Under the pieces are notes generated by a model. That model did no database searches. It had not been told where the DNA came from and worked only from the letters and a program-made list of their open reading frames with translations. Shown here in pieces: positions 1,350-57,543 of a DNA stretch of 64,000 bases. The translations under genes and the position numbers were made by a program. The stretch covers positions 1,364,001-1,428,000 of the forward strand of contig JAUFOQ010000005.1 in assembly GCA_040285855.1 (NCBI GenBank), in the 5' to 3' direction. The stretch is from Eukaryota sp. GEM-RC1. Taxonomy: Eukaryota. Position 1 is the first letter of the stretch; each line of letters opens with the position of its first letter.

Positions 1350-1708
1350 AGTGACTAGAGAGTTCGGATGGAACCAGGAACCAAGAAATGACAGACCTTA
1401 AGATTTATTTGAGAGATTCTGGTACAAGTACAGGAATGAGAATCGAACTAAGGGAACCCTCTGATTTAGAGTTTCTAAACTATTCTTCTTTATTTCCACG
1501 TACTAAGCAACTAGAAGTAGAAGTGCCGAGACAACGCACCTCTTTCTTTATGTTATCGATTGAAACGTTGAAAATCAATTCTACAATTACAAGTCTTGGA
1601 CTGTTCAGCAACTCTATTGGATTTGGAGGTGTTAGTGCTTTGGCAGATGCAATGAAAGTTAACACTAGACTTAAAATAGAGGGAGTAGAAGGTCTGAATA
1701 AGTCTTAA
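1350..1708 (+). pseudogene. Internally deleted relic of the LRR gene family seen at 18186 and 55685
   Basis: Encodes GMRIELREPSDLEFLN..FPR..QLEV, matching the pre-LRR segment of 18186..19691, then one LRR and the family C-terminal cap. Upstream gtgactagagagttcggatg also lies upstream of the 55685 gene. Confidence 0.75.
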
Positions 1709-1864
1709 TCAGTTTTCGTAGAGTTTTTTTTATAAAACAGGTTCTTTTTTCTTTAAATATCAGCGTGTTGAAAGTCTGTGGGTTAAAAAAAATATTTCTC
1801 ATGTTTTTGATGTCTTTAATATACCTTGTTAATTTCAAGAATATAGTACAGTCTACCCTCCCAT

Positions 1865-6426: not shown

Positions 6427-6527
6427 TGTAGTGTCAGAATGACACTATGACACGTCACCAGTAGTTATAGTCCGTATATTTGACCTAATAAAGTATTCCT
6501 TCAGTTTCATATCTAGATATCGGCACA
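6427..6527 (+). repeat. 5' LTR
   Basis: tgtagtgtcagaat...gatatcggcaca, identical to 9160-9260; contains AATAAA. Confidence 0.95.
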
Positions 6528-6556
6528 GTAACGTTACTTTGCTACATCGAAGGTAG

Positions 6557-9175
6557 ATGCCCGCTTCTGATCCCGATTTTAACCACATAGATGAAGATGT
6601 TAACTCGGATTCCGAAGTTACCTCTTACGCGTCCGCTGACAACGGTCAGACCAGTTCCGACAACGATTCCGAAATACCCGACTATGAAAATTCAGACGAC
6701 GAAACAAGCCATCCCGAAGCACAAGACACCACCCCGATCAACGAACTCCTAAAGAAAGTGTTGCTAGAGTCCTCCGCTGTCCGTCCTGCCGTTTTACGAT
6801 CACTCTCTGAAAGAGACATTACATTCTTTTTAGAGAAATACGATCTCTATAAGAACTGTGAAAACCCGTTGCCTATCACAAAGCTTATTCCGAAAAGGCT
6901 CCTAAAAGTCATCCAACTGGAAGCTGAAAGCAAGTCCCCGAAAAAGATCCATACTTATCTACTATCTTTAACTAAGATATCAGATCCATATGAAGCAAAA
7001 CGCCTCATGAGAACCTGTAGGAGAGTTCGAAGATCAACAATCCAATGCACCAGCTCACAGACTACTACGTGCGCTTCCTAGAGATAACAGATCGATGTAA
7101 TCTCAGTTCAAAATCCAAGACTGTGATACGCTACTTCTTACGGAACCTGCAACCTTCATTTATTGCTCAACAGCTGGAAGAAAACGTCGACTTAGGTTAT
7201 CACCGCAGTTTGAAAGATGTTTATCACGAAGCTAGAAAACTGCAAAAATCACAACGTTTAAGACCCAGACCTCAACTCTCAAATCAACAGAGAATTCAAG
7301 ATACCAAAACTGCCATTGACTCAAAACCTCGGAAACAATATCGTTTTAAATATCCTAAAAGCTCTGGTTTATGCTTGCATTGTGGAAGCTCAGATCACTT
7401 TGTTAAGGATTGTCCCAACAACCCCCACCTCCTCGATCCAAACATAAAGATGTGTTCCAAATATCGTCAAACGAAACAAAACCACTTCAATGCCCAGTCA
7501 CCATCAACAATAAGAAATTAGAAGCAATCATCGATACAGGCTCGAGCATCTCTCTATGGTCCGAAAATATCCAGCACTCTCTAAATCTTACCTCAACTCG
7601 ATTGGATAATTGCCTTGAACTAAGAACGATTTCTGGATGCACCAATACACAAAGGGTCGCCAAAGACATTCCTATTGAAATCGACTTAATCGATTCCAAG
7701 CCCAGTGTGGTAAAGCAAGACTTGTTTATTATCTCGGAGCAAAACAAAATTATCCTCGGTTGTGATTACCTGAGAAAGATTGGTTGTCTTACTGACACAT
7801 CTTTCCACTTCCAACCTAATCAAAAACTTGATACTGATGATGATCCTGTGGAAGAACTATATCCAACAGTTCTTCAGACAGATCAGGCTTCCAAGTCAAC
7901 AAATGGTATCACCATTCAAGGGTTTTCAGAGGACCAACAAGAAGACCTTCGAGGATTACTTGAGGAATTCAGTGACGTCTTTGACCCAAAAATGCCACCT
8001 GAAGGTATAAAATGTGAACCTCTAGCCCTTCCCCTCAAATTCGAGAAGATCATTTCTTCATCTCCTAGACCATTACCTCCTCAGAAACTCAAACTTGCAA
8101 ATGCGATTTTTGACTCCCTTATTGAAAAAGGCCTAGCCCGACCATCAACTTCTCCCTACTCTTCTCCCTACGACAGACATTCGTGCTGAAACCGTTGCTG
8201 ATTCTATATTTACAGACGTCTTCTGCTTCTTTGGACTCCCTGAGTCAATTAGATCAGATGGAGGTTCCGAATTCGACAATACTGTCTTATCTGCAGTTCT
8301 CAAAAGACTGAATGTCAAACATATGTTTTCGTATCCACACCACCATGAGTCAAATGGGCTAGCAGAACGAAGGAACAAAGAGATTCGTTCAACCCTAAAC
8401 AAATACACCGCAGAGCTGAATGAAAGGAAGAATTGGTCGAAGCTTATACCAATTATCCAGCTCATTATAAACTCGATTCCCTGTAGCTCAACAGGATTCT
8501 CTCCATTCACTCTACTCTTTGGAACCAACACATTGCCTAGGAGAAACGTCATTGAACACATTATCTCCCAACCTGCAAGTGATGTCAAACTTGACAATCG
8601 AACCAAGGCAACTAGATATCTATTGGAACTAGAAACAACTCTCAACGAACTCTGGAACAAAGCTAACCTCACACAATCTTCCCTGGTTGAATCTCGTAAC
8701 CCAAGCACTCCTCTCTTCAAAGTAAGCGATCTTGTCCTAAGGAAAGACTTAGGCAAAAACAAATTCTTGAAACATACAGGTCCTTTTGTTGTTTCCAGAG
8801 ATTCTTGGCTCGAATGGCTATAGAATCAAGAGCATTGTTAATGAAAGCTCTTATGTTGTATCTCAGTACCACCTCATCCCTTTCACTCCAAATATCCTCA
8901 ATGACAACGCTAAAAGACTAGCAGCTCTAGACATGGATGAATTTGTTGTAGAAGATGTACTCGATCACCACATCAATGAGAAAGAACATTTATTTCTTGT
9001 CAAATTTGTACAAGGTCCATCCATCTGGCAACCACTCGAATCTCTTAGAGATGGTTATAGAATTAACGAAAAGCTACTACAGTACTGTAATCGTTGTCAG
9101 ATAAAACTACCTCCAAGGAAGAGAGGAAAGGTAAGAAATCATACTCCTCAAAGGGGTAATGTAGTGTCAGAATGA
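6557..9175 (+). pseudogene. gag-pro-(deleted RT/RH)-integrase C-half-chromodomain
   Basis: Zn knuckle CLHCGSSDHFVKDC; protease AIIDTGSS; RT leader ending RPSTSPYSSP at ~8170; integrase RSDGGSEF and ESNGLAERRN; GPF motif HTGPF; chromodomain EFVVEDVLDH..FLVKF....IWQPLESL. Confidence 0.9.
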
Positions 9176-9260
9176 CACTATGACACGTCACCAGTAGTTA
9201 TAGTCCGTATATTTGACCTAATAAAGTATTCCTTCAGTTTCATATCTAGATATCGGCACA
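9160..9260 (+). repeat. 3' LTR
   Basis: Identical to 6427-6527. Confidence 0.95.
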
Positions 9261-13498: not shown

Positions 13499-16492
13499 TT
13501 AGCCAAAATCGTTTGCATCACTGCTGTCGTCGTTATACAGGGAATAATCTATTTCAACTTTGGGATTAACTTTCAACGCCTCTGCCAAAGCTGTGGCACC
13601 TTCATCTCTAATAGAGTTTCCAAGCAGATTAACACTTGAAACTGAAGTGTTAATTTTCAACGCCTCTGCCAAAGCTCTAGCACCTTCATCTCCAATATAG
13701 TTCCACTCTAGATTAATACTTGTAACTAAAGTGTTAACTTTCAACGCCTCTGCCAAAGCTGTGGCACCTTCATCTCTAATAGAGTTTCCAAGCAGATTAA
13801 CACTTGTAACTGAAGTGTTAACTTTCAACGCCTCTGCCAAAGCTCTGGCACCTTCGGCTCCAATATAGTTCCACTCTAGATTAATACTTGTAACTAAAGT
13901 GTTAACTTTCAACGCCTCTGCCAAAGCTGTGGCACCTTCGGCTCCAATATAGTTCCACTCTAGATTAATACTTGTAACTAAAGTGTTAACTTTCAACGCC
14001 TCTGCCAAAGCTGTGGCACCTTCAGCTCCAATAGAGTTTCCAAGCAGATTAACACTTGTAACTGAAGTGTTAACTTTCAACGCCTCTGCCAAAGCTGTGG
14101 CACCTTCAGCTCCAATAGAGTTTCCACGTAGATTAACACTTGTAACTGAAGTGTTAACTTTCAACGCCTCTGCCAAAGCTGTGGCACCTTCATCTCTAAT
14201 AGAGTTTCCACCTAGATTAACACTTGTAACTGAAGTGTTAACTTTCAACGCCTCTGCCAAAGCTGTGGCACCTTCATCTCTAATAGAGTTTCCAAGCAGA
14301 TTAACACTTGAAACTGAAGTGTTAATTTTCAACGCCTCTGCCAAAGCTGTGGCACCTTCAGTTCCAATAGAGTTTCCACCTAGATTAACACTTGTAACTG
14401 AAGAATTAAGTTTCATCGCCTCTGCCAAAGCTTCAGCACCTTCATCTCCAATAGAGTTGGCCCTCAGATTAACACTTGTAACTGAAGAATTAAGTTTCAT
14501 CGCCTCTGCCAAAGCTTCAGCACCTTCATCTCCAATAGAGTTGGCCCTCAGATTAACACTTGTAACTGAAGAATTAAGTTTCATCGCCTCTGCCAAAGCT
14601 TCAGCACCTTCATCTCCAATAGAGTTGCCCTCCAAATCAACACTTGTAACTGAAGCATTAACTTTCAACGCCTCTGCCAAAGCTTCGGCACCATCATCTC
14701 CAATAGAGTTGTATTCCAGATTAACACTTGTTACTGAAGCATTAACTTTCAACGCCTCTGCCAAAGCTTCGGCACCATCATCTCCAATAGAGTTCCACCG
14801 CAGATTAACACTTGTAACTGAAGCATTCATTTTCAACGTCTCTGCCAAAGCTCTGGCACCTTCATGTTCAATAGAGTTGTTACCCAGATTAACACTGGTA
14901 ACTGAAGCATTCACTTTCAACGCCTCTGCCAAAGCTCTGGCACCTTCAGCTCCAATAGAGTTTCCACCCAGATCAATACTTGTAACTGAAGCATTCACTT
15001 TCAATGCCTCTGCCAAAGCTCTGGCATCTTCAGCTTTAATAGAGTTGTCCTCCAGATTAACACTTGCAACATTACCAGCTCTAATTTCTTTTAAGACTTT
15101 CTTTAATTCTGGAAAATGACTCCACTGATCCTCGTCAAGGTTCAATGAATTCTGGATTGACAGCCCGTTTTCTGTAACTTTTTTAGTGTGATTGACCTTA
15201 AAAGATTCGCTAGTTGAATTAGACCTTATCCACGAGATGTTTCTAATCAATGGGTTTAACTTTCTGTTTTGACGTTCAATTCGACGCTGTAAATAATTGA
15301 TTTGAGTCTGCAATTGAAAAATAGTTTCATTTAAAGATTGTTTGTCATGGTGAAAATCAGTTTCTAAATTTAGAACAAAGTTTAAATGTTGTTCAGTAAG
15401 TTTCGAATTTTCGGTAATCATTTTCCTGATCTCAGCTTGTAAAAGTAGAATTTGATCAGTTTGAGATTGATTTTTCTCTTTAACAGACTTCAGTTCTTCT
15501 AGCAATAAAGACCGGTCAAGTTGGGTCGAAGGCTGGGGGAGATTCAAATTATCCAAAATTTCGATAACCTGGGAAATTTTAGGTCGAAGAATTGGATCTA
15601 CATTTAAACACTCATTGATTACTTTGGCTAATTGAGCAGGAACAGTCTTATGAAAGGGTAAAGAAATTCCTCGTTGCTTAGCTCCAACAAGACCAAAAAC
15701 AGTCATCCCTTGAAAAGCTTCCTGGTTTTGGAATAATTCATACAAAATAATTCCAATGGAGTAGATGTCACCTTGTGGAGTTACACTGTTTTCGAACTGC
15801 TCTGGAGCGGCATAGCGTAGAGTCATTGTATTAGTTTTCGGAGCAGTTGTTGTGGATTCAATGTTTCGTGAAGTTCCAAAATCAGCGATTCTGATTTTAT
15901 CATCAACAACTAAGACATTTCCTGGTTTAAGATCTCCATGAACAACGGACTTACTGTGGAGATATCTTACACCCTGGCAAAGTTCTTTGGCATATTCGAC
16001 AGTGAGGAAGGAGAAAGAGTTGGGGGAGGGCAGACAAGATGAAGCTCTTTCCATTACGATTCCGATGCGTTCTTCCCAAGAGCAGAGACCATAGACACGA
16101 AGAACAGCGGGGTGATTTAGCTGAACAAGAAGGTTCATCTCCTTCTTTAGTTTGATTCTTCCCTTTTCAGTAAGGGAGATCATTTTGATAGCAACTGGGA
16201 GCTTGAACCACATTCCAGCATAAACTACAGCACAACCTCCTTCAGCGATCTTATCAAGGAGTTCAACTTGGTCTGATGGGATTTCTGGGCAGAGATCGCC
16301 GTTACGAGCAGCCTCCACAAGGTCTTTGAGAGCATAGTTTGTAGGTTTATCAATGAGACAGACTTTGCGGCATGTTGGGCAGCTACTTAAGGCAGACGCA
16401 CATTGTGAACAAGCGGTGTGGCCAAGTTCGCATAGAAGCAAAGGTAGGCGACCAGAAAGGTTAAACGGTTCGTAGCAGATGAAACAATCCAT
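13499..16492 (-). CDS. RING finger - TKL-like non-RD protein kinase - coiled coil - 18 RI-like LRRs (997 aa)
   Basis: RING CFICY..C..GHTACSQC....CPTCR; kinase AEGGCAVVY, VAIK, HGDLKPGN, DFG, APE; heptad-rich linker; 18 repeats of 28 aa. First ATG at 16492. Confidence 0.92.
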   Translation of the reverse strand: MDCFICYEPFNLSGRLPLLLCELGHTACSQCASALSSCPTCRKVCLIDKPTNYALKDLVEAARNGDLCPEIPSDQVELLDKIAEGGCAVVYAGMWFKLPVAIKMISLTEKGRIKLKKEMNLLVQLNHPAVLRVYGLCSWEERIGIVMERASSCLPSPNSFSFLTVEYAKELCQGVRYLHSKSVVHGDLKPGNVLVVDDKIRIADFGTSRNIESTTTAPKTNTMTLRYAAPEQFENSVTPQGDIYSIGIILYELFQNQEAFQGMTVFGLVGAKQRGISLPFHKTVPAQLAKVINECLNVDPILRPKISQVIEILDNLNLPQPSTQLDRSLLLEELKSVKEKNQSQTDQILLLQAEIRKMITENSKLTEQHLNFVLNLETDFHHDKQSLNETIFQLQTQINYLQRRIERQNRKLNPLIRNISWIRSNSTSESFKVNHTKKVTENGLSIQNSLNLDEDQWSHFPELKKVLKEIRAGNVASVNLEDNSIKAEDARALAEALKVNASVTSIDLGGNSIGAEGARALAEALKVNASVTSVNLGNNSIEHEGARALAETLKMNASVTSVNLRWNSIGDDGAEALAEALKVNASVTSVNLEYNSIGDDGAEALAEALKVNASVTSVDLEGNSIGDEGAEALAEAMKLNSSVTSVNLRANSIGDEGAEALAEAMKLNSSVTSVNLRANSIGDEGAEALAEAMKLNSSVTSVNLGGNSIGTEGATALAEALKINTSVSSVNLLGNSIRDEGATALAEALKVNTSVTSVNLGGNSIRDEGATALAEALKVNTSVTSVNLRGNSIGAEGATALAEALKVNTSVTSVNLLGNSIGAEGATALAEALKVNTLVTSINLEWNYIGAEGATALAEALKVNTLVTSINLEWNYIGAEGARALAEALKVNTSVTSVNLLGNSIRDEGATALAEALKVNTLVTSINLEWNYIGDEGARALAEALKINTSVSSVNLLGNSIRDEGATALAEALKVNPKVEIDYSLYNDDSSDANDFG
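13565..15072 (-). repeat. 84-bp coding tandem array (18 LRR units)
   Basis: ttcaacgcctctgccaaagct recurs every 84 bp. Confidence 0.95.
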
Positions 16493-18185: not shown

Positions 18186-19691
18186 ATGCTCACACCTCAC
18201 CCTGAACCTTTGTTGAAAAAGAGTCGTTCATCCTCTTCCAGTATCTCCTCTGTGATGTTTAACGGTGCCGAACTGTCGGTTTTGTCTTCATCCACACATC
18301 CTCCCTCTAAACATGTCCATGTTCAGCAGACTTTGTTGATTCTCATCCATCTCCACTTGCTCAGACGTCTTTTTAAGCGTACTCTTGAAAATAATCATGA
18401 AAAAACTAATCCTCAACTCATTGCTTTGAAAACAGCGTTACCTGCATTCTTTGGACAAGTTGGCTATGTAAGTAATCACTTCCTTGATTCTTCATTCCAA
18501 GCAGTTAAAGTGTTTTTTCAATTACACACCTTTCATGCTGATCTTGAACATTTTCCCAAACTAATTTCACTTACCTGTTTCTTTGGAGCAGATCTACAAT
18601 CTGTTTTCTTCCACGTTGGTGGACTTTTGGAAATTGAGAAATTTTTTAATTATTCTGGTATAATTACAGGATTGAGAATCGAACTAAGGGAACCCTCTGA
18701 TTTAGAGTTTCTCAACAATTCTTCTTCTTTATTTCCACGTCTTAAGCAACTAGAAGTAAAAGTGGCGAGACAACGTACCTCTGCTTCTATGTTATTGATT
18801 GAAGCTTTGAAAACCAATACTACAGTTACAAGTATTGATCTGAGGGCCAACTCTATTGGAGATGAAGGTGCCAGAGCTTTGGCAGATGCGTTGAAAGTGA
18901 ATTCTTCAGTTACAAGTGTTAATTTGAGGTTCACCTGTATTGGAGATGAAGGTGTTAGAGCTTTGGCAGATGAGTTGAAAGTTAATACTTCAGTTACAAG
19001 TGTTAATCTGGGTTACAACTCTGTTGGATCTGAAGGTGTCAGAGCTTTGGCAGATGCGTTGAAAGTAAATACCTCAGTTACCAGTGTTAATCTAGGTGGA
19101 AACTCTATTGGAGCTGAAGGTGCCAGAGCTTTGGCAGATGCGTTGAAAGTAAATACCTCAGTTACCAGTGTTAATCTAGGTGGAAACTCTATTGGAGCTG
19201 AAGGTGCCAGAGCTTTGGCAGATGCGTTGAAAGTAAATACCTCAGTTACCAGTGTTAATCTAGGTGGAAACTCTATTGGAGCTGAAGGTGCCAGAGCTTT
19301 GGCAGATGCGTTGAAAGTAAATACCTCAGTTACCAGTGTTAATCTAGGTGGAAACTCTATTGGAGCTGAAGGTGCCAGAGCTTTGGCAGATGCGTTGAAA
19401 GTAAATACCTCAGTTACAAGGGTTAATCTATGTGAAAACTCTATTGGAGATGAAGGTGGCAGAGCTTTGGCAGATGCGTTGAAAGTGAATGCTTCAGTTA
19501 CAAGGGTTAATCTGAGCAACAACTCTATTGGAGATGAAGGTGGCAGAGCTTTGGCAGATGCGTTGAAAGTGAATGCTTCAGTTACAAGGGTTAATCTGAG
19601 CAACAACTCTATTGGAGCTGAAGGTGTCATAGCTTTGAGAAAGGAGTTGAAGGTTGATCCTCGATTACAATCTGGGGTGTTATTTAACTGA
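18186..19691 (+). CDS. LRR protein, second architecture: unknown ~205-aa N-terminal domain plus 10 RI-like LRRs
   Basis: Open 501-aa ORF; 84-bp repeats with di-residues RA,RF,GY,GG,GG,GG,GG,CE,SN,SN; N-terminus homologous to the 55685 gene. Confidence 0.88.
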   Translation: MLTPHPEPLLKKSRSSSSSISSVMFNGAELSVLSSSTHPPSKHVHVQQTLLILIHLHLLRRLFKRTLENNHEKTNPQLIALKTALPAFFGQVGYVSNHFLDSSFQAVKVFFQLHTFHADLEHFPKLISLTCFFGADLQSVFFHVGGLLEIEKFFNYSGIITGLRIELREPSDLEFLNNSSSLFPRLKQLEVKVARQRTSASMLLIEALKTNTTVTSIDLRANSIGDEGARALADALKVNSSVTSVNLRFTCIGDEGVRALADELKVNTSVTSVNLGYNSVGSEGVRALADALKVNTSVTSVNLGGNSIGAEGARALADALKVNTSVTSVNLGGNSIGAEGARALADALKVNTSVTSVNLGGNSIGAEGARALADALKVNTSVTSVNLGGNSIGAEGARALADALKVNTSVTRVNLCENSIGDEGGRALADALKVNASVTRVNLSNNSIGDEGGRALADALKVNASVTRVNLSNNSIGAEGVIALRKELKVDPRLQSGVLFN

Positions 19692-20130: not shown

Positions 20131-21529
20131 TTGTAAAATCTAAAATTCTGCATTTTATGTCTTTTTGTTTATTTTGTAGTTTAAAAACAATCTTTTATCT
20201 CCTAAAGATACATAAAGTCTGCGACGTTAACAATGTTAACAAACTATTCAATGACATGTTCTTGAACCCCAAAGAGTTTCTTCAAAATTCTGTCAAAATA
20301 TTCAAACACTGAAAAATATAGAGAAAAAACAAAACAATCCCTGCAAAACTAAAGTTGAACTTTTGCCAAATTCACAACACAATTGATCAAAAAATGACAA
20401 AAACGTCTCAACTGCAGAACCCAAATTCCCATGTAATGAAATATCGAATGGTTAAAGCGCCAAAGCATTATGTCTTTGTGAAATTAACTTAGAAGCATAA
20501 GCACAATAACCAAAACATTACTCATCTTCAGCATTATCCAAAGGTAAAAATTTATCATTCAGTAGCTACTAACAGTTTCATAAAATGGATCCGAAGTGGT
20601 GAGTTATAGAACTACACTTAAAAGAAAGGTCTGGGATTCATCCTGACTCATTTAAAACTTGATTTATCATACTCAAATGTGTTGAGTAGATCCAGTACTT
20701 GAGCTTGTTGTTGATTCAAAGCAACTTCTTGACAATTTAATCATAGGCCAATTAAGTCACCACGACTTTTATCACGGAAGAAAGAATCAGAAAATGCGGA
20801 TAATAGAGGTTCAATTTTATCATGGAACACGTGTCCATACAAATTATGTGCTAAAAAGCCAACCACAGGCAATATTAGTCGAATTGAGACAGTAAATGAT
20901 GGATAAAGAACTGATAAGTATTACTGTACTTGGAGTATTATAGTCCAAATCAAGTGTTAATAGAAAATTGTGTCTGTATCTCAAATTACTTAAGTTTTTT
21001 AATTCCATTTATCCGAGGAAGCTTGGATGATGATTATCCGTCTTCGTTTGGCTATTTAGCCTGCAAGTTCATTAAACAATTCTACTTGCATTTGTGGATC
21101 TAATTGTGTTTTTATTCATTTGATTCATTGTCTATATTTTCTTCATCAACACTTATCTATTCATGATGATATACGTACCTCTTGTTAGTTCACGTTTAAA
21201 GCATAGGGTTAGAGATGGGAAAATACTCTACTCAAGTACTACTGAGGAGATACTCGAGTAGAATACCACTTAACTGACCTTCTTTGATAAGTCGAAACTA
21301 TCGTGTGAATCGATAGTAGTCTTTTAATGCAGTGGTAAACAACAGCGGTGTACTCAACGCTTAGGTGATATTAAAAGAAGTTTTTCATTCTTGTTCATTA
21401 TAATCGAATGGCCAATCAATTTCAGTGTGTTCGAGCAATTTGAGTTAAGATGGTGGAGCTGTAATTGTTTTTGAAGAAGATTCATAAATCTTTTTACTAC
21501 AAATAGAACATTACAGAGGTGTTTATCTG

Positions 21530-22670
21530 TTAGGCGGTGTAAAAAATTTCATTTTTGAATTTGTTAATCGATTTCCTAATGATATTTCACTTATTAACCC
21601 CAATTCATGTAAATATTTATTTGATTTAAATGAAGCGTTAAACAAATTACCTTTTGACGTTTGGTCTCAGTGTTTCCCAGAATCTGTGGCTGATATACCT
21701 GAAAGATGTTTGAATAATCTTCAGTACTGTCTGAAAAAATTACAACAGAAACTCACAAATATTTTTGAAAGCTTGGATTATAATGTTAGACTTGGCATGT
21801 CTAAGGAAAAAAATCCCGCTTTTGCAAATTTCTTAACGGATGTTTCTAATAGCTCTGCTTCATGTCTGATTACTCAAATCCCTCAAGTTTACGGTCTTTT
21901 TCTTGATGATAACTCTTGGTCATTAAACATGCGTTTACGGTCATTTATTTGGCCTGATAACCTTCAACATAAGTTGAAATGCCAATGTGGGCAATCTGTA
22001 ACACCTACACATTTATTGAATTGTAACCGTTTTATTTTCTTTTTAGAAGTAAGGTTCATGATTCAGTAAGGGATCAATTATATTGGATGTGTAAATCTTA
22101 TGGAATAGTTTCCTTTTTAGAACCAGTTCTGGCTGGTTTGTTTGATGATACAAATTGTTTGACAAATCGTTTGGAAACAGCCGTGGTGATGTCATATTTC
22201 CTGGTCTAGATGGATCTTTCATTATTGCTGATGTTATGTCTATCGATGTTTGTAATGATTCCAACAAGAAACTTGCTAAATCTAATGCTAAAAACCCCTT
22301 GTTGATTGGTGAAAAATTTGCAAATATATTGTGCTAAATTGAAATTATTGAATTCGGCTTCACACTCGAATTACTTGTTGTACCCTTTTGTATTTTCACT
22401 GTACGGTTTTTTAGGTGAATCTGCAACATCATTACTTGAAGATTGTAAAAGAAAAAACATCTGGGACTTTTGATCTTAGATTTTGGAAAAATCGAATCGT
22501 GTTTGCTATCTTTAAAGGTATGGTGACTTCTGTATCTAGCGCTTTATTATCTCTTGGCAGACATTATGAAGATAAGGTAGGTGAAAATTTCCAGTTAGGC
22601 AATCTGGACTTTGAGGATATTGATATGTATGTACACTGTAGTGTTGTTGTCAATAAAATCACGATAATAA
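21530..22670 (+). mobile_element. 5'-truncated CRE-like non-LTR retrotransposon (3' 1.1 kb)
   Basis: Close match to the reverse complement of ~26310-27460; CQCG..HLLNC finger, RGDVIF..IADV endonuclease, 3' UTR gtacactgtagtgttgttgtcaataaaa. Confidence 0.88.
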
Positions 22671-22926: not shown

Positions 22927-24177
22927 CTACAAATCCTGAGAAAATCCAGCAACCTCAAACACCTTACTTTCATTACAATACACGTCATTAATCCCTGCAG
23001 AACCCAATACAGCAGTACTAGTACAAGCTAAATCCTCCTCCGCAGCATAACTTCCATTTTTCCAGTACTCACCCACGTCATAAACACCCCACATCACGTC
23101 AGCATCAGAAGGATTCAACAAGGCGGCACAAACTCCAGCCTTAGCTAATTCTACTACAATCAGTTTAACATCACATTGGAAGTTGATGACGTGATCTTGA
23201 TTGGAAAACTGTGATATTGACTCATTTAGTTCTTGTTTGAATCTCATTGGATTGAAGTAAATAACTGGTATACTTGTCTTAAACAGCTCATACACTGTCA
23301 TTAAAGAATCAAAATACATTCTGGCTAAATCGCTCTGTTCTTTTCCAGACATTGAAGATCCTGAAAGGAATACACCAAGTCCAATAGCTGGAATTGCAAG
23401 GTGTGTGTACTCGTAATGTTTAACAGCCGAAAGTACAGTAAACCAAAGATTGCTCAAAATTTTAAATATTTGAGTTGGATCATGTCGAAATGTATCCACT
23501 AACATCGGAGAAAGACTGCTATAAGCAAAATTCAGCCCCGGTACACTAACCAATAGATTAGGTTTACAATCATCTAGAAAACAGCTCCTGATCTGATTCA
23601 GAGCAAACCCCTTTGTATCAACAGCTTGCTCTACAAAGAAATGAACTAGCTGGGCATGTACTACAGAAGAAGCCAAGATCAGCAGAGGAGTTTTAAGGGA
23701 TTTCTGGTAGTGTTCGAAGGAGGAGAAGCCAAGAGATTGCCATTGGGAGGAGTTGTTGGGGGATAGGTTACAGACAGTACCGAAAGGTCTGACATCTTGT
23801 TGGATGATGTTGATTTCTTCATCCTTGAACTTTTTCAAAAGAAGAAGATATGCTGTTTTAGGAATAGACTCAGCACATACGAAGATAGATGTAGATTCAA
23901 GGAGATGTTGTGCACAAGACTTTGTTAACGACACTGTGTTGTTACCGTAAGCATTTCGTAAGTCAGGTGTATCGGCAGCTATAGAAACTAACGTAGAAGG
24001 ATCCTGTTTAGCGAGCGGAACTCTGAGATATGTAAGCCAACCATCATGAAGATTGACAGCAGTAAGTTGTTGAAGGAATTTTCGAGCAGTGAAGCCACAG
24101 CGTTCTCCATAACATATAGGCTTATGATCCAGACCTAGATAGTGGGAGAAGCGTCCAATGGAAGCGTGAAGAGACAT
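22927..24177 (-). CDS. Putative macrodomain-fold ADP-ribosylhydrolase (permuted PARG/MavL/Larg1-like), 416 aa
   Basis: Intact ORF conserved in its paralog. HLAIPAIGLGVF resembles the macrodomain diphosphate loop; C-terminal LLN..GEYWKNGSYAAEEDLA resembles the PARG-type catalytic loop. Function is inferred. Confidence 0.65.
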   Translation of the reverse strand: MSLHASIGRFSHYLGLDHKPICYGERCGFTARKFLQQLTAVNLHDGWLTYLRVPLAKQDPSTLVSIAADTPDLRNAYGNNTVSLTKSCAQHLLESTSIFVCAESIPKTAYLLLLKKFKDEEINIIQQDVRPFGTVCNLSPNNSSQWQSLGFSSFEHYQKSLKTPLLILASSVVHAQLVHFFVEQAVDTKGFALNQIRSCFLDDCKPNLLVSVPGLNFAYSSLSPMLVDTFRHDPTQIFKILSNLWFTVLSAVKHYEYTHLAIPAIGLGVFLSGSSMSGKEQSDLARMYFDSLMTVYELFKTSIPVIYFNPMRFKQELNESISQFSNQDHVINFQCDVKLIVVELAKAGVCAALLNPSDADVMWGVYDVGEYWKNGSYAAEEDLACTSTAVLGSAGINDVYCNESKVFEVAGFSQDL

Positions 24178-25619
24178 CTTTCCTGTGATTCACAAAGACG
24201 TTCTGTCTTTTCTTTTCTTTTTCTTTTCTTTTCCTTGATCATCTGTAAAGGAATCTCAATGACCCTCATGACTTTCTCTCTGTCGTGACTAGTTAGGTCC
24301 TTCTGTCACCGCTTTCTTTCATACCTCCCGCAAGTTCTTTGATCAGTATATCCAGACTCAATCGGAATTTCCCTTTGAAATCATCTTTAACCTTCCTTAC
24401 TTACATACTTACTTATACTTCGGTTACACTCAGACCTATAATAACTCTTCCACTAACTCTTCTTGATACTCTTCCCTATTATTTCCCTCGTTCAGTAGAA
24501 GAAGCTTCCGCTACTAGTCCTCTTCTCCCCTGCAGATGTAGGTAATGAATGGGGAGAGTACTAAGATCCTAAGTGAACTCTTTCTATTGTTGACATTATT
24601 CTCCCTACTTCGCCTTCTTTTTTTGATGAAGTAAATGATCTTAAGGAAATCGAATCACGTTCTGTCGACTGTGATTGTAAATGGCTTTCACATAATTGAT
24701 GCTATATGGTACTGGAAGAAATTTCCAGTACTTTACTATTCGTTGTTACATTGCACAATAATTTTAATTTATATTACTGGTCAAATTATTTAAATGATCC
24801 ACATGTACAGATTCACTGACATTGTGTGGCGTACCTTGCACCGGTCGGAAAGTGTCGTAACCTGATTGGTCTTGACCATGATGACGTCATCAATCGTGGC
24901 TATTTCCTGCAGGTCACTCACCGACAGTTTGAAGCTTTGTCTATTACTTCTAGTTCCCTGAAATCTTCAATGACCTAGAGTTAGTGGAAATTTGTCATGT
25001 GGATGTGGAAGCTTTTCTAAGACCAACATAAGTTTACTTGATAGTGTAATTGAACAGGAAAGATCCAAGAGTCGTCGATGGTTTTCAACCTTAAAACTAG
25101 ATACGAAGTTAAGAAGAAGTGAAAGAACATCATGACAGACTCGTTTCCGAAAACGATATTATTCAGCAACAACTTAACAGAGGCATCTTCAGCCAAGAGT
25201 GGTAATGTCGACCTCGCAATGGTGAATCTTTTGAGAGACGTAAAAGATTCAAGATCAAAGAACACCAAGTTACAATCACGAGGATGTTTGAAGATTAATT
25301 CACTCAAAGACATGTTAAGGTGTAACAAAATAAACAAGATTTGGCCCTATATAGTATCAGCATGAAGTACTTTGAGGAATGGTAAATTCTTCAGCTTTAG
25401 AAACAGACCAGGCTCCAACTTTACTGCTGGAAGTTTGACTCGTGGATGTTGAAGATTTTGTAAGAGTGAAATAAGTTCACTTGGTTTTGTATTTGAAGAA
25501 GAAAGATCCAAGAGTAGTTGGTGGTTTTTGATTTTAAAACCAGAAAGAGAGTGATTGAATAGAGGAACATCATCTGGGCCAGGGTTGTTAAAAAATGATT
25601 TAAATAAATTATTGCACGC

Positions 25620-26296: not shown

Positions 26297-28516
26297 TTTT
26301 TAATTTACAAGTTTTATTGACAACAACACTACAGTGTACTTACAGCTAATAATCAATATCCTCAAAGTCCAGATTGCCTAACTGGAAATTTTCACCTACC
26401 TTATCCTCATAATGTCTGCCAAGAGATAATAAAGCGCTAGATACAGAAGTCACCATACCTTTAAAGATAGCAAACACGATTCGATTTTTCCAAAATCTAA
26501 GATCAAAAGTCCCAGATGTTTTTTCTTTAACAATCTTCACAAAGATTTCAAGTAATGATGTTGCAGATTCACCTAAAGAACCGTACAGCGAAAATACAAA
26601 CGGGTACAACAAGTAATTCGACTGTGAAGCCGAATTCAATAATTTCAATTTAGCACAATATTTTTGCATTTTAAATTTTTCACCAATGAGCAAGGGGTTT
26701 TTAGCATTAGATTTAGCAAGTTTCTTGTTGGAATCATTACAAACATCGATAGACATAACATCAGCAATAATGAAAGATCCATCAAGACCAGGAAATATGA
26801 CATCACCACGGCTATTTCCAAACGATTTGTCAACATCTGTATCATCAAACAAACCAGCCAGAACTGGTTCTAAAAAGGAAACTATTCCATAAGATTTACA
26901 CATACAATATAATTGATCCCTTACTGAATCATGAACCTTACTTCTAAACGAAATAAAACGGTTACAATTCAATAAATGTGTAGGTGTTACAGATTGCCCA
27001 CATTGGCATTTCAAATTATGTGGAAGGTTATCAGGCCAAATATATGACCGTAAACGCATGTTTAATGACCAAGAGTTATCATCAAGAAGAAGACCGTAAA
27101 CTTGAGGGATTTGAGTTATCAGAAATGAAGCAGAGCTATCAGAAACATCCATTAAGAAATTTGCAAAAGCGGGATTTTTTCCTTGGCCATGCCAAGTCGA
27201 ACATTATAATCCAAGCTTTCGAAAATATTTGTGAGTTTTTGTTGTAATTTTTTCAGACAGAACTGAAGATTAGTCAAAGATCTTTCAGGTATTTCAGACA
27301 CAGATTCTGGGAAACACTGAGACCAAACGTCAAATGGTAATTTGATTAACGCTTCGTTTAAGTCAAATAAATATTTACATGAATTGGGGTTAACAATGGA
27401 AATGTCATTAGGAAATCGATTAACAAATTCAAAGATGAAATTTTTTCCACCGCCTAAAAAAGCAGATTTGCAAAAAAATTGATGATTTGGTAAAACCAAT
27501 ACCACCAAAATGAGCAGAAGTAAACAAATGACTTCTAAGTAACGTTGAATCAACTTCTAACAATGAAGCAAAAAAATTAATCCTCAACTCGTCAAAAGAT
27601 CTACAAAAGTTCTGAGCGATTGAAGGAGCAGTAGATCTCAAAATATGTGTGATTTTTCCGGAGTAGCAAATTTTTAAAATAAAAAACTTGACATGTTTTT
27701 CAATATCATATGAAGAAATTGTGTTGAGTTCTGAACCAATTTTGTCCAAACAATTAGATAATTCTTGAGAAAATTTAGGAACATTCCCAAGCCAACATCC
27801 TAGAAAACGAAAAGCATCTTCAACATAATTGATAAATGGAATCTGAACTCCATTAATAAATAATTCTTGTGCAGAACTACCAATTAATAAACATTTGTCT
27901 GGGTTCAGAGATAAACCCAATGTTTCATAAGTATCAGCCACTTCCACAGCGACTTTTTTTTAACAATTCAAGGGGACCAATAATAGAAATATCATCCATA
28001 TAGCCAACTATCTTAAGGTCTGGGTATTTTTCTAAAATACACACAAAAGCGAATCATGAATAGCCAAACAAAAGAACAGAGGACCAAGAGGATCTCCTTG
28101 TTTAACACCAGGCATAGATTTCAATGAATATGAATCATAAATTAAATCGCTTGGTTTTCCATAAAATAAATAAAAGTAGGACGTCAACTCAGGAAAGTCT
28201 TTTTCAATAGCAGCAAAAACAGATTTACGACTAACTGAATTAAAGGTATTTTTAAAATCAAGATTAAAAATGAAATTATCATCATGTGAATTGAAAAACA
28301 AATCTGATGTTAAGGCAGCAACAAAAGCCCCGTCAATTGTCTTAATTCCAAATTGCAATGGAGACAAAAAGCGACCCGCTTTATTGACCACTCGATTAAA
28401 CACAATTGAAGCGAATAAACGAGAAATTGATTCTCCAACTGCAATTGAACGGATTCCATCAGGCTTAATTCCATTACCTGGTTTTACTAAAGCACTAAGT
28501 CGAGCAACAGTCAATT
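26297..28516 (-). mobile_element. 5'-truncated CRE-like (RT plus restriction-like endonuclease) non-LTR retrotransposon, young
   Basis: RT motifs R.IAVGE, LDFKNTFNSVSR, GVKQGDPLGP, GYMDD; CCHC finger; endonuclease HDSVRD..EP..RGD..IADV..K..KY..PFVFSLYG; 10-bp TSD cctttattta (26287-26296, 28517-28526); empty site at ~50243. Confidence 0.92.
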
Positions 28517-34447: not shown

Positions 34448-34499
34448 GAGAAGCAAAGCAAAAGGATCAAGAGAGGTATTTCCAGTGTTATCAATTTTC

Positions 34500-43195: not shown

Positions 43196-45752
43196 TTACA
43201 ATCTATTAAGTTGACGTACACCCTCTACTTTAACTCTATGATTAACTTTCAACGCCTCTGCCAAAGCTCTGGCACCTTCAGCTCCAATAAAGTTCCACCT
43301 CAGATCAATATTTGTAACTGAAGCATTAAATTTCAACGCCTCTACCAAAGCTCTGGCACCTTCATCTTCAATAGAATTGTGACTCAGATTAACACTTGTA
43401 ACTGAAGCATTCACTTTCAACGCGTCTGCCAAAGCTCTGGCACCTTCAACTTCAATAGAGTTGTCCTCCAGATTAACACTTGTAACTGAAGCATTCACTT
43501 TCAACGCGTCTGCCAAAGCTCTGGCACCTTCAACTTCAATAGAGTTGTCCTCCAGATTAACACTTGTAACTGAAGAATTCACTTTCAACGCCTCTGCCAA
43601 TGCTCTGGCACCTTCATCTCCAAATGAGTTCCACTCCAGATTAATACTTGTAACTGAAGCATTCACTTTCAACGCCTCTGCCAAAGCTCTGGCACCTTCA
43701 GCTCCAATAGAGTTGCACCCCAGATTAACACTTGTAACTGAAGAATTCACTTTCAACGCCTCTGCCAATGCTCTGGCACCTTCATCTTCAAAAGAGTTTC
43801 TACTTAGATCAATACTTGTAACTGAAGCATTCACTTTCAACGCCTCTGCCAAAGCTCTGGCACCTTCAGCTTCAATAGAGTTACACCCCAGATTAATACT
43901 TGTAACTGAAGCATTCACTTTCAACGCCTCTGCCAAAGCTCTGGCACCTTCAGCTCCAATAGAGTTGCACCCCAGATTAACACTTGTAACTGAAGCATTC
44001 ACTTTCAACGCCTCTGCCAAAGCTCTGGCACCTTCATCTCCAATAGAGTTGTATTCCAGATTAACACTTGTAACTGAAGCATTCACTTTCAACGCCTCTG
44101 CCAAAGCTCTGGCACCTTCAACTTCAATAGAGTTGTCCTCCAGATTAACACTTGTAACTGAAGAATTCACTTTCAACGCCTCTGCCAAAGCTCTGGCACC
44201 TTCAGCTCCAATAGAGTTTCCACCTAGATCAATACTTGTAACTGAAGAATTCACTTTCAACGCCTCTGCCAAAGCTCTGGCACCTTCAGCTCCAATAGAG
44301 TTTCCACCCAGATCAATACTTGTAACATTACCAAATCTAATTTCTTTTAAGACTTTCTTTAATTCTGGTTTCAGATGACTCCACTGATCCTCGTCAAGGT
44401 GCAATGAATTCTGAATTGATAGTCTGTTTTCTTTAACTTTTCTACTCTGATTATAATTAAAAGATTCTCTAGTTGAATTAGACCTCATCCAAGAGATCTT
44501 TTTTAATCAATGGGTTTGAATTTCTGTTTTGACGCTCAATTCGATGTTGTAAATGGTTGATTTGAGTTTGCAATTGAGAAATAGTTTCATTTAAAGATTG
44601 TTTCTCATGTTGAAAATCACTTTCTAAATTTAGAACAAAGTTTAAATGTTGTTCAGTAAGTTTCGAATTTTCGTTAATCATTTTCCTGTTCTCAGCTTGT
44701 AAAAGTAGAATTTGACCAGTTTGAGATTGATTTTTCTCTTTAACGGACTCCAGTTCTTCTAGCAAAAAAGACTGGTCAGGTTGAATCGAAGGCTTGGGAA
44801 GATTTAAATTTTCCAAAACTTCAATAATTTCGGAAATTTTAGGTCGTAGAATTGGATCTGAATTTAAACATTGATTGATTATGCTACACAATGCAACTGG
44901 AATTGTTCTATCAAAGGGTAAGGATTTGCCACCATATTTAGCTCCTACAATAGCATAATGCTTCATCCCTTGAAAAGCTTCTTTTTTTGGAATAATTCAT
45001 ACAAAATAATTCCAATGGAGTAAATGTCACTTTGAGGTGTAACACTGTCATCGAGCTGTTCTGGAGCGGCATAACGTAGAGTTATTGCAGCAGTTCTCGG
45101 AATTGTTGTTGTGGATTCAATGTTTCGTGAAGTTCCAAAATCAGCGATTCTGATTCTATCATCAACAACTAAAACATTTCCTGGTTTAAGATCTCCATGA
45201 ACAACGGACTTACTGTGGAGATATCTTACACCCTGGCAAAGTTCTTTGGCATATTCGACAGTGAGGAAGGAGAAAGAGTTGGGGGAGGGCAGACAAGATG
45301 AAGCTCTTTCCATTACGATTCCGATGCGTTCTTCCCAAGAGCAAAGACCATAGACACGGAGAACAGCAGGGTGATTTAGTTGAACAAGAAGGTTCATCTC
45401 CTTCTTTAGTTTGATTCTTCCCTTTTCAGTAAGGGGAGATCATTTTGACAGCTACTGGGAGTCTGAACCACATTCCAGCATAAACAACAGCACAACCTCC
45501 TTCAGCGATCTTATCAAGGACTTCAACTTGGTCTGATGGGATTTCTGGGCAGAGATCGCCGTTACGAGCAGCCTCCACAAGGTCTTTGAGAGCATAGTTT
45601 GTAGGTTTATCCATGAGACAGACTTTGCGGCAAGTTGGGCAGCTACTTAAGGCAGACGCGCACTGAGAACAAGCGGTGTGCCCAAGTTCGCATAGAAGCA
45701 AAGGTAGGCGACCAGAGAGGTTGAACGGTTCGTAGCAGATGAAACAATCCAT
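43196..45752 (-). CDS. RING - non-RD kinase - coiled coil - 13 LRRs (paralog of 13499-16492); three 1-nt homopolymer indels
   Basis: Four ORF pieces align end to end with copy A. Breaks fall at the G4 run ~45433, T7 run ~44982 and T6 run ~44499; no in-frame stops. Confidence 0.85.
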
Positions 45753-45854
45753 CGTAGTACTAGTAGAAGTTGAAGTACACAAGTGAGTCAATATTGACTG
45801 TTTCCATCTGATTTTACAATACAACTTTTAAAATACAACGAATAAATACATGAA

Positions 45855-54904: not shown

Positions 54905-55075
54905 TTAACAGCTGCTAGGGCTTTGGTAGAGGCGTTGAAAGTTAATACTACAGTTACAAGTGTTAATCTATGTATTAACTCTATTGGAGATGAAGGTCAT
55001 AGTGCTTTGGCGGGTGTATTAAATGTTATTCCTAGACTTAAAATAGTGGGAGTAAAAGGTCTGAATAAGTCTTAA
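54905..55075 (+). pseudogene. Orphan LRR cassette plus C-terminal cap
   Basis: ARALVEALKVNTTVTSVNLCINSIGDEG..PRLKIVGVKGLNKS*, with no N-terminus. Confidence 0.75.
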
Positions 55076-55684
55076 TATTTTTTATAGTGTTAGATTTAAA
55101 CAACGTCCGGTTCTTCTTCAAATATAAAAGAATTAGCTATGTTTTCAGAGAACCTAAAATATTCGGCTTGAGCCGGCTCAAAATCTTTTTAGCCAGCCGG
55201 CTTGCAGCTGGAAATATTTCTATACTGGACCAGTCGGCTGGCTCGGCTAGCCGGCTCCCATCTCTACTTCCAATCAAGAACTCGACACGGACTGTTAAAT
55301 CAATCAATGTGAAAGGCACTTTGGAATGGTAGATTATTTAGATATTCAATGACTTGACACGTCATCAAAAGGAACAGTCCATTACTATTTCTGATCACTA
55401 TCGCGTTAAAAGCGACAAGATTGTAACAAATAATCGCATTGAATAATTGACATGCTCCCTAATGTTCATATATAGTAGCATTTATACTGAGCACAACAGT
55501 AGGTCACATTTGAAGAAAAGTCTCAGGTTGTCCACAAGAATGATTCATGCATGTACGGATTGAAAGGATTGACTGACAATAGTTCTGGTGACTAGAGAGT
55601 TCGGATGTTCTTGGTTCAAATACCAAGTTAGGGATGTCAGACAGCAGTAAGTTTGAGAAGAATGCAGAAAGTTCTTGTTCTTCA

Positions 55685-57543
55685 ATGCTCACACCTCGCC
55701 CTGAACCATTGTTGAAAAGAGTCGTTCATCCCCTTCCAGTATCCCCTCTGTGATGTCTAACTGTGACGAACTGTCGGTCTTATCTTCATCCCCACTTCCT
55801 CCCTCTAAACGTGTCAATGTTCAGCAGACTTTGTTGATTCTGATCTATCTCCACTTGCTGAGACGTCTTCTCAACCGTACCCTTGAAAATAATCACGATC
55901 GAAATCCTCAACTCCATGATTTGAAAACAGCGTTACCTGCATTCTTTGGACAAGTTGGCTATGTAAGTCATCACTTCCTTGATTCTTCATTCCAAACAGT
56001 TAAAGTCTTTTTTCAGTTATACACTTTTGATTCTGATCTTAAAGACCTCCCCAAACTAATTTCACTTGCGTCTTTCTTTGGAGTGGATCTACAATCTATT
56101 TTCATGTACGCTTTCAGAACCCTAGAAATTGAGAAATTTCTTAATTATTCTGGTATAATTACAGGATTCGGAATATTACTAAAGGAACCCTCTGATTTAG
56201 AGTTTCTAAACAAATCTTCTTCCTTATTTCCACGTCTTAAAGAATTCAAAATAATAGTAGTGGGAGGACTACTACGCACCTCTGTTTCTATGTTATTGAT
56301 TGAAGCGTTGGAAACCAATACTACAATTACAAGTGTTCGCCTGGAGGACAACTATATTGGAGCTGAAGGTGCTAGAGCTTTGGCAGAGGCGTTGAAAATT
56401 AATACTACAGTAACAACTGTTTGTCTAGATGGAAACTCTATTAGCGATGAAGGTGCCAGAGCTTTAGGAGAGGCGTTGAAAGTGAATACTTCAGTTACAA
56501 GTATTGATCTGAAGTACAACTCTATTGGAGATGAAGGTGCCAGAGCTTTAGCAGAGGCGTTGAAAGTGAATACTACAGTTACTGGTATTGATTTGTGTGA
56601 CAACTCTATTGGAGATGAAGGTGCCAGAGCTTTAGGAGAGGCGTTGAAAGTGAATGCTTCAGTTACTAGTATTTATTTGGGTCACAACTCTATTGGAGAT
56701 GAAGGTGCCAGAGCTTTAGGAGAGGCGTTGAAAGTGAATACTTCAGTTACAAGTATTGATTTGTGTAACAACTCTATTGGAGATCAAGGTGCCACAGCTT
56801 TAGGAGAGGCGTTGAAAGTGAATACTTCAGTTACAAGTATTGATCTGAAGTACAACTCTATTGGAGATGAAGGTGCCAGAGCTTTAGCAGAGGCGTTGAA
56901 AGTGAATACTACAGTTACTGGTATTGATTTGTGTGACAACTCTATTGGAGATGAAGGTGCCAGAGCTTTAGGAGAGGCGTTGAAAGTGAATGCTTCAGTT
57001 ACTAGTATTTATTTGGGTCACAACTCTATTGGAGATGAAGGTGCCAGAGCTTTAGGAGAGGCGTTGAAAGTGAATACTTCAGTTACAAGTATTGATTTGT
57101 GTAACAACTCTATTGGAGATCAAGGTGCCACAGCTTTAGGAGAGGCGTTGAAAGTGAATGCTACAGTTACAAGTATTGATCTGAAGTACAACTCTATTGG
57201 AGATGAAGGTGCTAGAGCTTTAGGAGAGGCGTTGAAAGTGAATGCTACAATTTCTAGTCTTGATTTGTGTGACAACTCTATTGGAGATGAAGGTGCCAGA
57301 GCTTTGGCAGAGACGTTGAAAGTTAATACTTCAGTTACAAGTGTTAATCTGTGGGCAAACTATATTGGAGATGAAGGTGCCAGAGCTTTAGGAGAGGCGT
57401 TGAAAGTGAATGCTTCAGTTACTAGTATTGATCTGGAGGATAACTCCATTGGAGCTGAAGGTGCCAGAGCTTTAGGAGAGGCGTTGAAAGTTAATCCTAG
57501 ACTTAAATTAGTGGGAGTAGATGAACTCAATGAGCCAAAATAA
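55685..57543 (+). CDS. LRR protein, second architecture, 14 LRRs; 1-nt deletion in an A run near 55716
   Basis: ATG CTC ACA CCT at 55685 matches the 18186 start (gaaaag here vs gaaaaag). Di-residues ED,DG,KY,CD,GH,CN,KY,CD,GH,CN,KY,CD,WA,ED. Confidence 0.88.

Follow-up and report, generated by a model that had tools for sequence, protein, structure and literature searches.

What role might be played by tandem arrays of closely similar leucine-rich repeats (LRRs) in which two adjacent residues differ widely from one repeat to the next? Four genes, designated A to D, raise this question in a 64,000-nucleotide stretch of the genome of Eukaryota sp. GEM-RC1 (GenBank assembly GCA_040285855.1, contig JAUFOQ010000005.1, positions 1,364,001 to 1,428,000), referred to here as the window. 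The organism is a Skoliomonas isolate, described as a free-living bacterivorous metamonad (10.1101/2023.05.03.539051; PMC11603281). The results suggest that the arrays are probably a diversifying sensor surface that functions in defence, with concerted evolution and diversifying selection acting together on the repeats of putative cytosolic sensors. A recognition role, as proposed in the first-pass annotation of this DNA, is likely. The genes, and the parts of gene A, are located as follows.

13499..16492, minus strand: gene A, 997 amino acids in a single uninterrupted reading frame, with a RING finger, a kinase, a probable coiled coil, and 18 LRRs.
16364..16489, minus strand: RING finger of gene A. 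Scanned by itself, it scores 35 bits for Pfam Sina_RING (cut-off 29.3), but it is under the cut-off when the complete protein is scanned.
15554..16264, minus strand: protein kinase domain of gene A (Pkinase, E 3.6e-40), with VAIK, DFG, and an HGD catalytic loop (non-RD).
15236..15493, limits approximate, minus strand: probable coiled coil of gene A, judged by eye from Q/E/L-rich sequence.
13559..15070, minus strand: array A, 18 in-frame units of 84 bp (28 amino acids) of the ribonuclease inhibitor-like (RI-like) or NLRC3-like LRR type.
15047..15052, minus strand: variable pair (positions 7 and 8) of unit A1, recurring each 84 bp to 13619-13624.
18186..19691, plus strand: gene B, 501 amino acids, with a helical N-terminal region, a divergent LRR-like cap, and 10 LRRs (array 18825-19664).
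43196..45752, minus strand: gene C, a paralogue of A with 13 LRRs (array 43235-44326).
55685..57543, plus strand: gene D, a paralogue of B; its 14 LRRs (array 56326-57501) include a block of four units in two copies.

Repeat units were numbered on the motif LxxLxLxxNxL, which places the variable pair at positions 7 and 8. All 55 units in the four LRR genes keep the 28-amino-acid period (LRR_6, E 2e-86). Tandem Repeats Finder delimited array A at 13566-15070 with a period of 84 and 17.9 copies, and unit matches in the arrays were 86-92%; the last unit of array A departs from the repeat after codon 26. The first-pass annotation had described the unit as nearly invariant. The period is constant, but the mean protein identity outside the pair is 0.80 in array A. 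The 18 pairs that it had read from this array (in order, ED GG GN RW EY EG RA RA GG LG GG RG LG EW EW LG EW LG) agree exactly with the sequence, and its statement that all four LRR genes have the pattern is borne out, with positions 7 and 8 the most variable in each of the four. Variation was concentrated at these positions rather than spread evenly. Entropy pooled over the 55 units was 2.73 bits at position 7 and 3.01 bits at position 8, followed by 1.55 bits at position 13; positions 12, 13, 17, 25, and 27 each had 1.3-1.55 bits. Each of the six pair nucleotides had a diversity of 0.54-0.64 (0.60 and 0.64 at the two third positions), versus about 0.10-0.12 for the scaffold, and scaffold nucleotide diversity within genes was 0.09. 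None of 100,000 column shuffles yielded an equally variable 6-nucleotide window. The 55 units hold 23 different pairs and 26 different hexamers.

Two compositional features of the pair were also observed. The third base is G or T at codon 7 in 40 of 44 units and C or A at codon 8 in 36 of 44, a skew that may derive from a few ancestral codons. The six pair bases are about 58% G+C, and the 1-kb blocks of the window are 30-43% G+C.

Sequencing or assembly error was ruled out as the source of the pairs. None of the 55 units contains a stop codon or a frameshift, and the same hexamers are found in separate genes (for example, A, B, and C share the hexamer for GG, and A, C, and D share that for ED). 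The recurrence of 17 of the 23 window pairs in Eukaryota sp. GEM-RC1 protein records also counts against error. The order and number of the units could depend on the assembly. A fixed, position-specific string of pairs was ruled out as well. Pair strings are unlike between paralogues, and the first anchored repeat carries 20 different pairs in 25 aligned B-type proteins.

How can the scaffold stay so uniform while the pair does not? Shuffling of repeats had been proposed, and the arrays have clear marks of it. In a four-gamete test on informative scaffold sites 95 of 171 site pairs failed, and there are exact block duplications. Units B4-B7 are identical, and D3-6 and D7-10 have 2 differences over 336 bp. 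Unit A2 equals unit C1 over 75 nucleotides, an identity that could also have been retained since the duplication of the two genes. Four-fold degenerate scaffold sites diverge by 0.16 between A and B and by 0.13 between C and D, and the corresponding value for the kinase region of A and C is 0.145. Silent divergence of the arrays across unrelated gene types is thus about the level seen between paralogues, which points to exchange between gene types or to domain shuffling in the recent past. The claim that the scaffold is homogenised even at silent sites largely held, but diversity at four-fold scaffold sites has a mean of 0.147 and extremes of 0 and 0.55. Unequal crossing-over and gene conversion would keep the scaffold uniform, and a uniform scaffold would in turn keep the units exchangeable. 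Selection would retain point mutations at the pair, which would then be reshuffled.

The A/C and B/D gene pairs exist because of a large, rearranged segmental duplication (5632-31323 versus 37504-57500, with blocks 81-95% identical). The RING-kinase parts of A and C differ at 9% of nucleotides, and D differs from B at 13%.

Evidence that selection may act on the pair came from comparison with silent sites. By counting, non-synonymous diversity at the pair was 0.618 versus 0.155 at silent scaffold sites, and the ratio of the two was 3.9-9.8 per gene. The first and second codon positions of the pair exceeded the 12 four-fold scaffold sites (Mann-Whitney p 0.003). A maximum-likelihood codon model was fitted to the 43 distinct units on a single tree, built either from the whole unit or from the scaffold. 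With the scaffold silent rate as the reference, omega at the pair was 7.0 on the whole-unit tree (p 4e-22) and 33.7 on the scaffold tree (p 2e-69). In per-position tests, positions 7 and 8 passed Bonferroni correction on both trees and position 13 did so on one. Counting and likelihood both support an excess of non-synonymous change at the pair over silent change in the scaffold, and relaxed constraint alone does not account for the pair.

The same pattern was found outside this organism. Of 7997 proteins scored in a protein search, 2031 passed E 1e-20, and the best 120 of these 2031 were analysed; 115 had at least 7 units, and 86, the query excluded, had a scaffold identity of at least 0.70. 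Among these 86 homogeneous homologues from the best 120, positions 7 and 8 were both in the top four variable positions in 68 and were the top two in 32. The named matches in the best 120 included three coral NLRC3-like proteins and 15 Mortierellaceae proteins, the others being mostly unnamed NACHT-LRR records. Because the matches were picked by their likeness to the query, these counts speak for this repeat class only. Metagenome and viral DNA yielded 25 distinct arrays of at least 6 units from 77 loci. In the arrays with a scaffold identity of at least 0.8, pair change exceeded scaffold silent change in 8 of 8, by more than twofold in 6 of the 8, and the same positions were variable in metagenome and viral arrays of 28-60% GC. 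The viral collection contributed 2 loci, one with 13 units and variation at positions 8, 3, 10, and 5. There were 19 bacterial loci, 5 of them with at least 6 units. An array in an uncultured Legionella bin (L078:2001-3008) has 14 units with a scaffold identity of 0.91 and a pair identity of 0.48. Most of the 19 bacterial matches came from host-associated groups; this scaffold may thus be in use both in hosts and in intracellular bacteria. The sequences suggest that the pattern is common within this repeat class, rather than peculiar to this organism, and that similar arrays are common in related repeats of corals, fungi, and bacteria.

Is the pair rewritten by dedicated machinery? Templated micro-conversion from donor cassettes, or local hypermutation, might target the six bases, perhaps within the lifetime of a clone. 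Such targeting would be in accord with the confinement of diversity to six neighbouring bases (the third codon positions among them), with the higher silent rate of these codons (see below), and with the recurrence of the same hexamers across genes. Pair divergence is also near saturation at scaffold differences of only 2-3 bases; units 2 bases apart in the 69-nucleotide scaffold differ on average at 2.9 of the 6 pair bases (35 unit pairs). However, all 15 unit pairs with identical scaffolds have identical hexamers. The multi-base, non-synonymous codon changes emphasised in the first-pass annotation are real as differences between units. Codons differ by 2-3 bases in about three-quarters of the amino-acid-changing unit pairs (935 of 1236 at codon 7 and 972 of 1277 at codon 8). 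They can be explained with no mutation of several bases at once, because all 14 codons at position 7 and all 15 at position 8 are connected through single non-synonymous steps. Of the silent A sites, that of codon 12 varies in only 2% of units and that of codon 20 in 0%, and, as noted above, the same positions vary over a wide range of GC content. Both reverse-transcriptase-related elements nearby look like ordinary retrotransposons. No donor-cassette library was seen within the window, where the only loose fragments are two decayed gene ends, identified by comparison of the window with itself.

1416..1760, plus strand: relic of a B/D-type gene, with the cap region, a single degenerate LRR, and the C-terminal end.
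54910..55131, plus strand: relic LRR fragment of about one unit and the C-terminal end.

A mechanism of the diversity-generating retroelement type was ruled out, since the silent A sites of the unit are near invariant and the window self-matches include no invariant template copy. One DNA fold of two tandem units, with no control, gave no support for a hairpin at the pair; it left the first hexamer single-stranded and put the second on the border of a weak side stem. Overall, it is improbable that dedicated machinery targets the pair. We also give little credence to a more elaborate proposal, in which a metamonad-type flagellate maintains a cytosolic, antibody-like repertoire of dozens of genes that is wired to a RING ligase and a kinase and differs between clones, its units re-dealt by directed micro-conversion of a six-base cassette. 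If that proposal were true, a single cell would be capable of adaptive recognition, the contribution of each unit to specificity would be predictable, and the arrays would offer a programmable scaffold for two-residue binders.

Where would the pair lie on the protein? The sequence and the model indicate that the 28-residue LxxLxLxxN units belong to the RI-like (NLRC3-type) LRR class. In a model of the LRR region each unit has a strand and a helix, the strands span positions 3 to 7 or 8, and the top Foldseek matches are complexes of ribonuclease inhibitor with proteins. Positions 3-5 of a standard LRR form the concave strand, and the loop that follows is on the ascending side, which binds ligands in Toll-like receptors, as described in PMC4598782. 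The extent of the strands, together with this geometry, places the pair at the strand end and ascending loop, on the rim of the concave face. This is predicted to be the binding side, and the pairs stacked there would form one unbroken stripe.

The composition of the pair is similar in all the pools compared (isoleucine, leucine, valine, and methionine 3-7%; aromatic residues 16-19%; glycine plus serine 29-38%; Spearman 0.65-0.86). Pairs are rich in Gly, Ser, Arg, Asp, and aromatics across the pools, and proline and most aliphatic residues are absent from window pairs. Antibody loops have a comparable residue richness. The scarcity of aliphatic residues and the share of charged ones fit a surface, and the similarity of pair composition and position in other organisms argues for a protein surface rather than a DNA context. 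The net charge of the arrays is -29 for A, -19 for C, and -24 for D (-5, -10, and -13 on the face); B is neutral. On the basis of the open alphabet, the acidity, and the uniform composition, we interpret the stacked pairs as a stripe that would contact protein ligands. Several adjacent pairs might form one antibody-like contact patch for a protein, rather than each pair recognising one letter.

The opposite view, that each pair reads one unit of a linear polymer (a DNA or RNA base, a sugar, or a peptide residue) and that repeat order spells the target, follows from the analogy to transcription activator-like effectors (TALEs). TALEs read DNA one base per repeat with few common pairs. The window arrays resemble their repeat-variable di-residues in having near-identical tandem repeats, two adjacent variable residues, and free reordering. 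The two residues dominate variation more cleanly here than in coral-type arrays, and their co-variation exceeds that of shuffled data in each of the four pools (the observed value was reached in 0 of 1000 shuffles). A similar idea was proposed for Dictyostelium purpureum LRRs with reference to LRRs that bind nucleic acids (PMC10392669). However, co-variation is expected anyway from the shared descent of six linked bases, and the fold differs from that of TALEs. The pair set is not small. There are 23 pairs in 44 non-identical units in the window, 102 in 213 in the GEM-RC1 records, 84 in 177 in Mortierellaceae, and 219 in 1030 in NACHT-LRR proteins (85 matches, 8 low-identity ones excluded), and the four commonest pairs account for 41%, 18%, 17%, and 18% of these pools, respectively. 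Most of the arrays are acidic, positions 5, 10, and 13 are also variable in relatives, and the top fold matches are complexes with proteins. With an open alphabet, variation at other surface positions in relatives, and no sign of nucleic acid reading, a TALE-like code is very improbable.

Several considerations weigh against the interpretation of the arrays as a diversifying sensor surface. The first-pass annotation's own test, dN/dS at the pair itself, is not passed, as the silent sites of the pair also change more. Their diversity is 0.50, which gives a non-synonymous to silent ratio of only 0.93-1.66 by counting, and with a free local silent rate the likelihood estimates of omega are 1.9 and 2.4 (p 0.14 and 0.08), not significantly above 1. 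This local silent rate is raised about 3- to 10-fold (p 0.02 and 0.001). Such a rise is expected if old pair alleles persist while their flanks are overwritten, but a local hot spot would have a similar effect. Scaffold omega is 0.8-0.9, indicating that low scaffold variation is not plain purifying selection. Single-tree codon models overstate selection under recombination, and the units here recombine. In every LRR, the consensus leaves positions 7 and 8 free ('x'). The model of the LRR region (pLDDT 71, pTM 0.55) was made from a single sequence with no alignment, and its output is secondary structure only. Runs of one pair in some relatives, such as five consecutive RC pairs in the protein P0136, resemble plain slippage, and the top sequence matches include flagellar proteins with the same repeat class. 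Homopolymer runs of gene C contain three one-base indels (near 45436, 44985, and 44504), and gene D has one such indel (near 55714). These indels may be pseudogene lesions or assembly errors.

Could the pattern then be a neutral by-product of slippage and unequal crossing-over in a duplicated, transposon-rich region, with positions 7 and 8 merely the least constrained? The window does hold a large duplication, retroelements, relics, and frame-broken copies, there are runs of identical units, and the local omega is not significantly above 1. However, neutral sites cannot outrun silent sites, yet change at the pair is 0.62 versus 0.155. The excess at the pair in all eight homogeneous metagenome arrays (more than twofold in six), the 55 units free of stop codons and frameshifts, and the residues missing from window pairs also argue against neutrality. 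The neutral explanation is therefore disfavoured, and its probability is low. Three results favour selection: the codons form single-step networks, the silent adenines are unmutated, and the same positions vary at very different base composition elsewhere.

If the arrays are a diversifying sensor surface, in what kind of protein are they displayed? Simple hydropathy profiles of A, B, and D have no stretch over KD19 1.82, and the gene A protein starts directly with the RING finger. These three proteins look cytosolic, rather than extracellular. In Pfam scans RING, kinase, and LRR domains were found in A, LRR-region matches only were found in B, C, and D, and no NACHT or NB-ARC domain was found in any of the four. 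The gene A kinase lacks the Arg before the catalytic Asp, and the HGD motif is present in A and in 17 of 18 close relatives. A non-RD kinase is an association with immune-type kinases, not proof of an immune role. In A and C, putative binding by the array might be passed to the non-RD kinase and a RING ubiquitin ligase. The likeliest targets of these two proteins would be proteins of intracellular bacteria, viruses, or ingested prey. The N-terminal region of B and D is predicted, with low confidence, to have three helices. It gave no Pfam match to an F-box at E values up to 5 and no Foldseek match at E 0.001, and in VIA-align the best Z score was 6.4, to unrelated folds and over residues 103-241 only.

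Outside the repeats, the nearest relatives of both gene types are proteins of this organism. All 25 matches to the N-terminal region of B are Eukaryota sp. GEM-RC1 proteins (64-83% identity), as are 16 of the 18 best matches to the RING-kinase part. In 34 Eukaryota sp. GEM-RC1 proteins with 222 units and 102 pairs, positions 7 and 8 are again the most variable. The RING-kinase front is joined to LRRs in 6 of the 18 closest matches and to other C-terminal domains in the rest. A gene at 32916-34498 (minus strand) encodes a BTB domain (E 2e-14) and, after it and in a different frame, a coiled coil with a beta-rich tail. This tail matches the C terminus of the RING-kinase relative P0123 (E 2e-24), which suggests that tails have been swapped among BTB and RING-kinase fronts. 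We take the tail to be SPRY-like, although Pfam gave no SPRY match. The kinase-LRR relatives P0133 and P0136 have a hydrophobic C-terminal stretch, judged by eye, that is absent from gene A and is possibly a tail anchor. Longer relatives of B and D (P0044, P0045, and P0069) presumably have an extra N-terminal RNA-recognition-motif-like domain ahead of the shared helical region.

The same mechanism might serve a purpose other than defence, such as self/non-self or mate recognition, prey sensing, or the control of transposon proteins. The repeats of Podospora het-d and het-e recognise allelic self proteins (PMC12222747), and food sensing was proposed for Tetrahymena LRRs (PMC6564038). Within the window, however, no partner locus was identified, and the RING and non-RD kinase front suits defence at least as well. 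We regard a purpose of this kind as unlikely.

The window also contains other genes and mobile elements. A long terminal repeat (LTR) retroelement at 6427-9260 has two identical 101-bp LTRs (TG...CA), a 4-bp target duplication, and Gag-like, protease, and integrase frames. It seems to be internally deleted, since the protease frame reaches only the start of reverse-transcriptase-like sequence, and the empty site is kept in the duplicate at 37504-39286. A broken non-LTR retrotransposon at 26346-28523 (minus strand) retains an RVT_1 fragment (E 1.6e-6) and a C-terminal frame that we assume to be of the restriction-like endonuclease type; an inverted partial copy lies near 21488-22658. A 471-amino-acid frame at 60899-62314 (minus strand) with a weak hAT dimerisation match (E 0.049) is probably a DNA transposase. 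A duplicated gene of 420 amino acids (22927-24189 and 46660-47946, minus strand; DNA 95% identical) matched no Pfam family at E 0.001. Radial-spoke and nitrilase genes recognised with Pfam would fit a flagellated eukaryote.

Which known systems do these arrays resemble most closely? Podospora HNWD receptors combine conservation within the array and shuffling with selection that acts on a small number of surface codons (PMC4986451, PMC12222747). As described there, fungal NLRs of high internal conservation (het-d/het-e/NWD WD40 types, as well as ANK and TPR types) have near-identical repeats that evolve in concert and are exchanged both within a gene and among genes; repeat number varies, and a few codons on the interaction surface are hypervariable, much as in the window. 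The unit matches of 86-92% in the window arrays lie within the 80-100% repeat identity typical of such receptors, and the window arrays likewise have shuffling within and between paralogues. They differ in being 28-residue RI-like LRRs, a type not found in the fungal survey, and in their fronts, which are a RING finger and kinase or a helical region rather than the central NACHT or NB-ARC domain of NLR (STAND) proteins.

Among unicellular eukaryotes, a comparison with TALEs was drawn in 2020 for more than 90 D. purpureum LRR proteins that have two hypervariable residues in succession (PMC10392669). In FGxxFN LRRs of Dictyostelium and giant viruses, two repeat-edge residues vary most, and some of these proteins are fused to kinases or F-boxes (PMC9525666). 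The citation of O'Day 2006 in the D. purpureum report leads us to infer that its family is of the FNIP class. Like the window genes, the Dictyostelium genes as described form a large family with variable repeat number and a hypervariable pair at the horseshoe edge. However, FGxxFN repeats have 22 residues with the pair at 8-9 within the motif, whereas the window units have 28 residues and a beta-alpha structure, and their pair, at 7-8, precedes the Asn. The pair is composed of Y/D/H/N/C in Dictyostelium and of G/E/D/R/W/C in the window. The FNIP or FGxxFN motif is absent from the window units, which gave no FNIP match in Pfam. Shuffled LRR modules with an analogy to adaptive immunity were described in Ectocarpus ROCO and LRR-kinase proteins, with positive selection on the concave face (PMC3341825), and in Tetrahymena, with 90-bp exons (PMC6564038). 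In those accounts each repeat is an exon of 24 or 30 residues with other partner domains, whereas the window arrays are intron-free.

The closest counterparts in repeat type are stony-coral NLRC3-like NACHT-LRR proteins and Mortierellaceae RNI-like proteins, which share the 28-residue repeat, the homogeneous scaffold, and positions 7 and 8 among the most variable. They differ in having NACHT or other N-terminal domains and stronger variation at positions 5, 10, and 13. No paper describing the pattern in these coral or Mortierellaceae proteins was found in the open-access literature. Lamprey variable lymphocyte receptors (VLRs) are extracellular, have 24-residue LRRs, and are assembled somatically from donor cassettes. 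They resemble the window proteins in being LRR solenoids built from modules with variable residues on the concave side. In contrast, the window proteins look cytosolic, with neither a signal peptide nor an anchor evident in A, B, and D, and, as judged from the assembly alone, the genes are complete rather than incomplete germline genes, with just the two relics and no cassette library in the window.

In the main texts of the open-access literature, no publication on the pattern in 28-residue RI-like arrays or in metamonads was found, and neither 'LRR' nor 'leucine-rich' occurs in the main text of the GEM-RC1 genome paper (10.1101/2023.05.03.539051). The value of the finding is limited by the fact that the concept, together with the TALE and VLR analogies, was already published for other protists. 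What it adds is a 28-residue RI-like LRR among the repeats that homogenise a scaffold and diversify a stripe (WD40, ANK, TPR, FGxxFN, and exon-coded LRRs). Coral NLRs, Mortierellaceae, and host-associated bacteria share the pattern, and the scaffold may therefore be a natural library for binder design. In this probable metamonad, a homogenised LRR scaffold with a diversified two-residue stripe is carried on RING-kinase and other fronts, and in the RING-kinase-LRR proteins there are specific candidates for immune sensors that would act cell-autonomously in an anaerobic flagellate.

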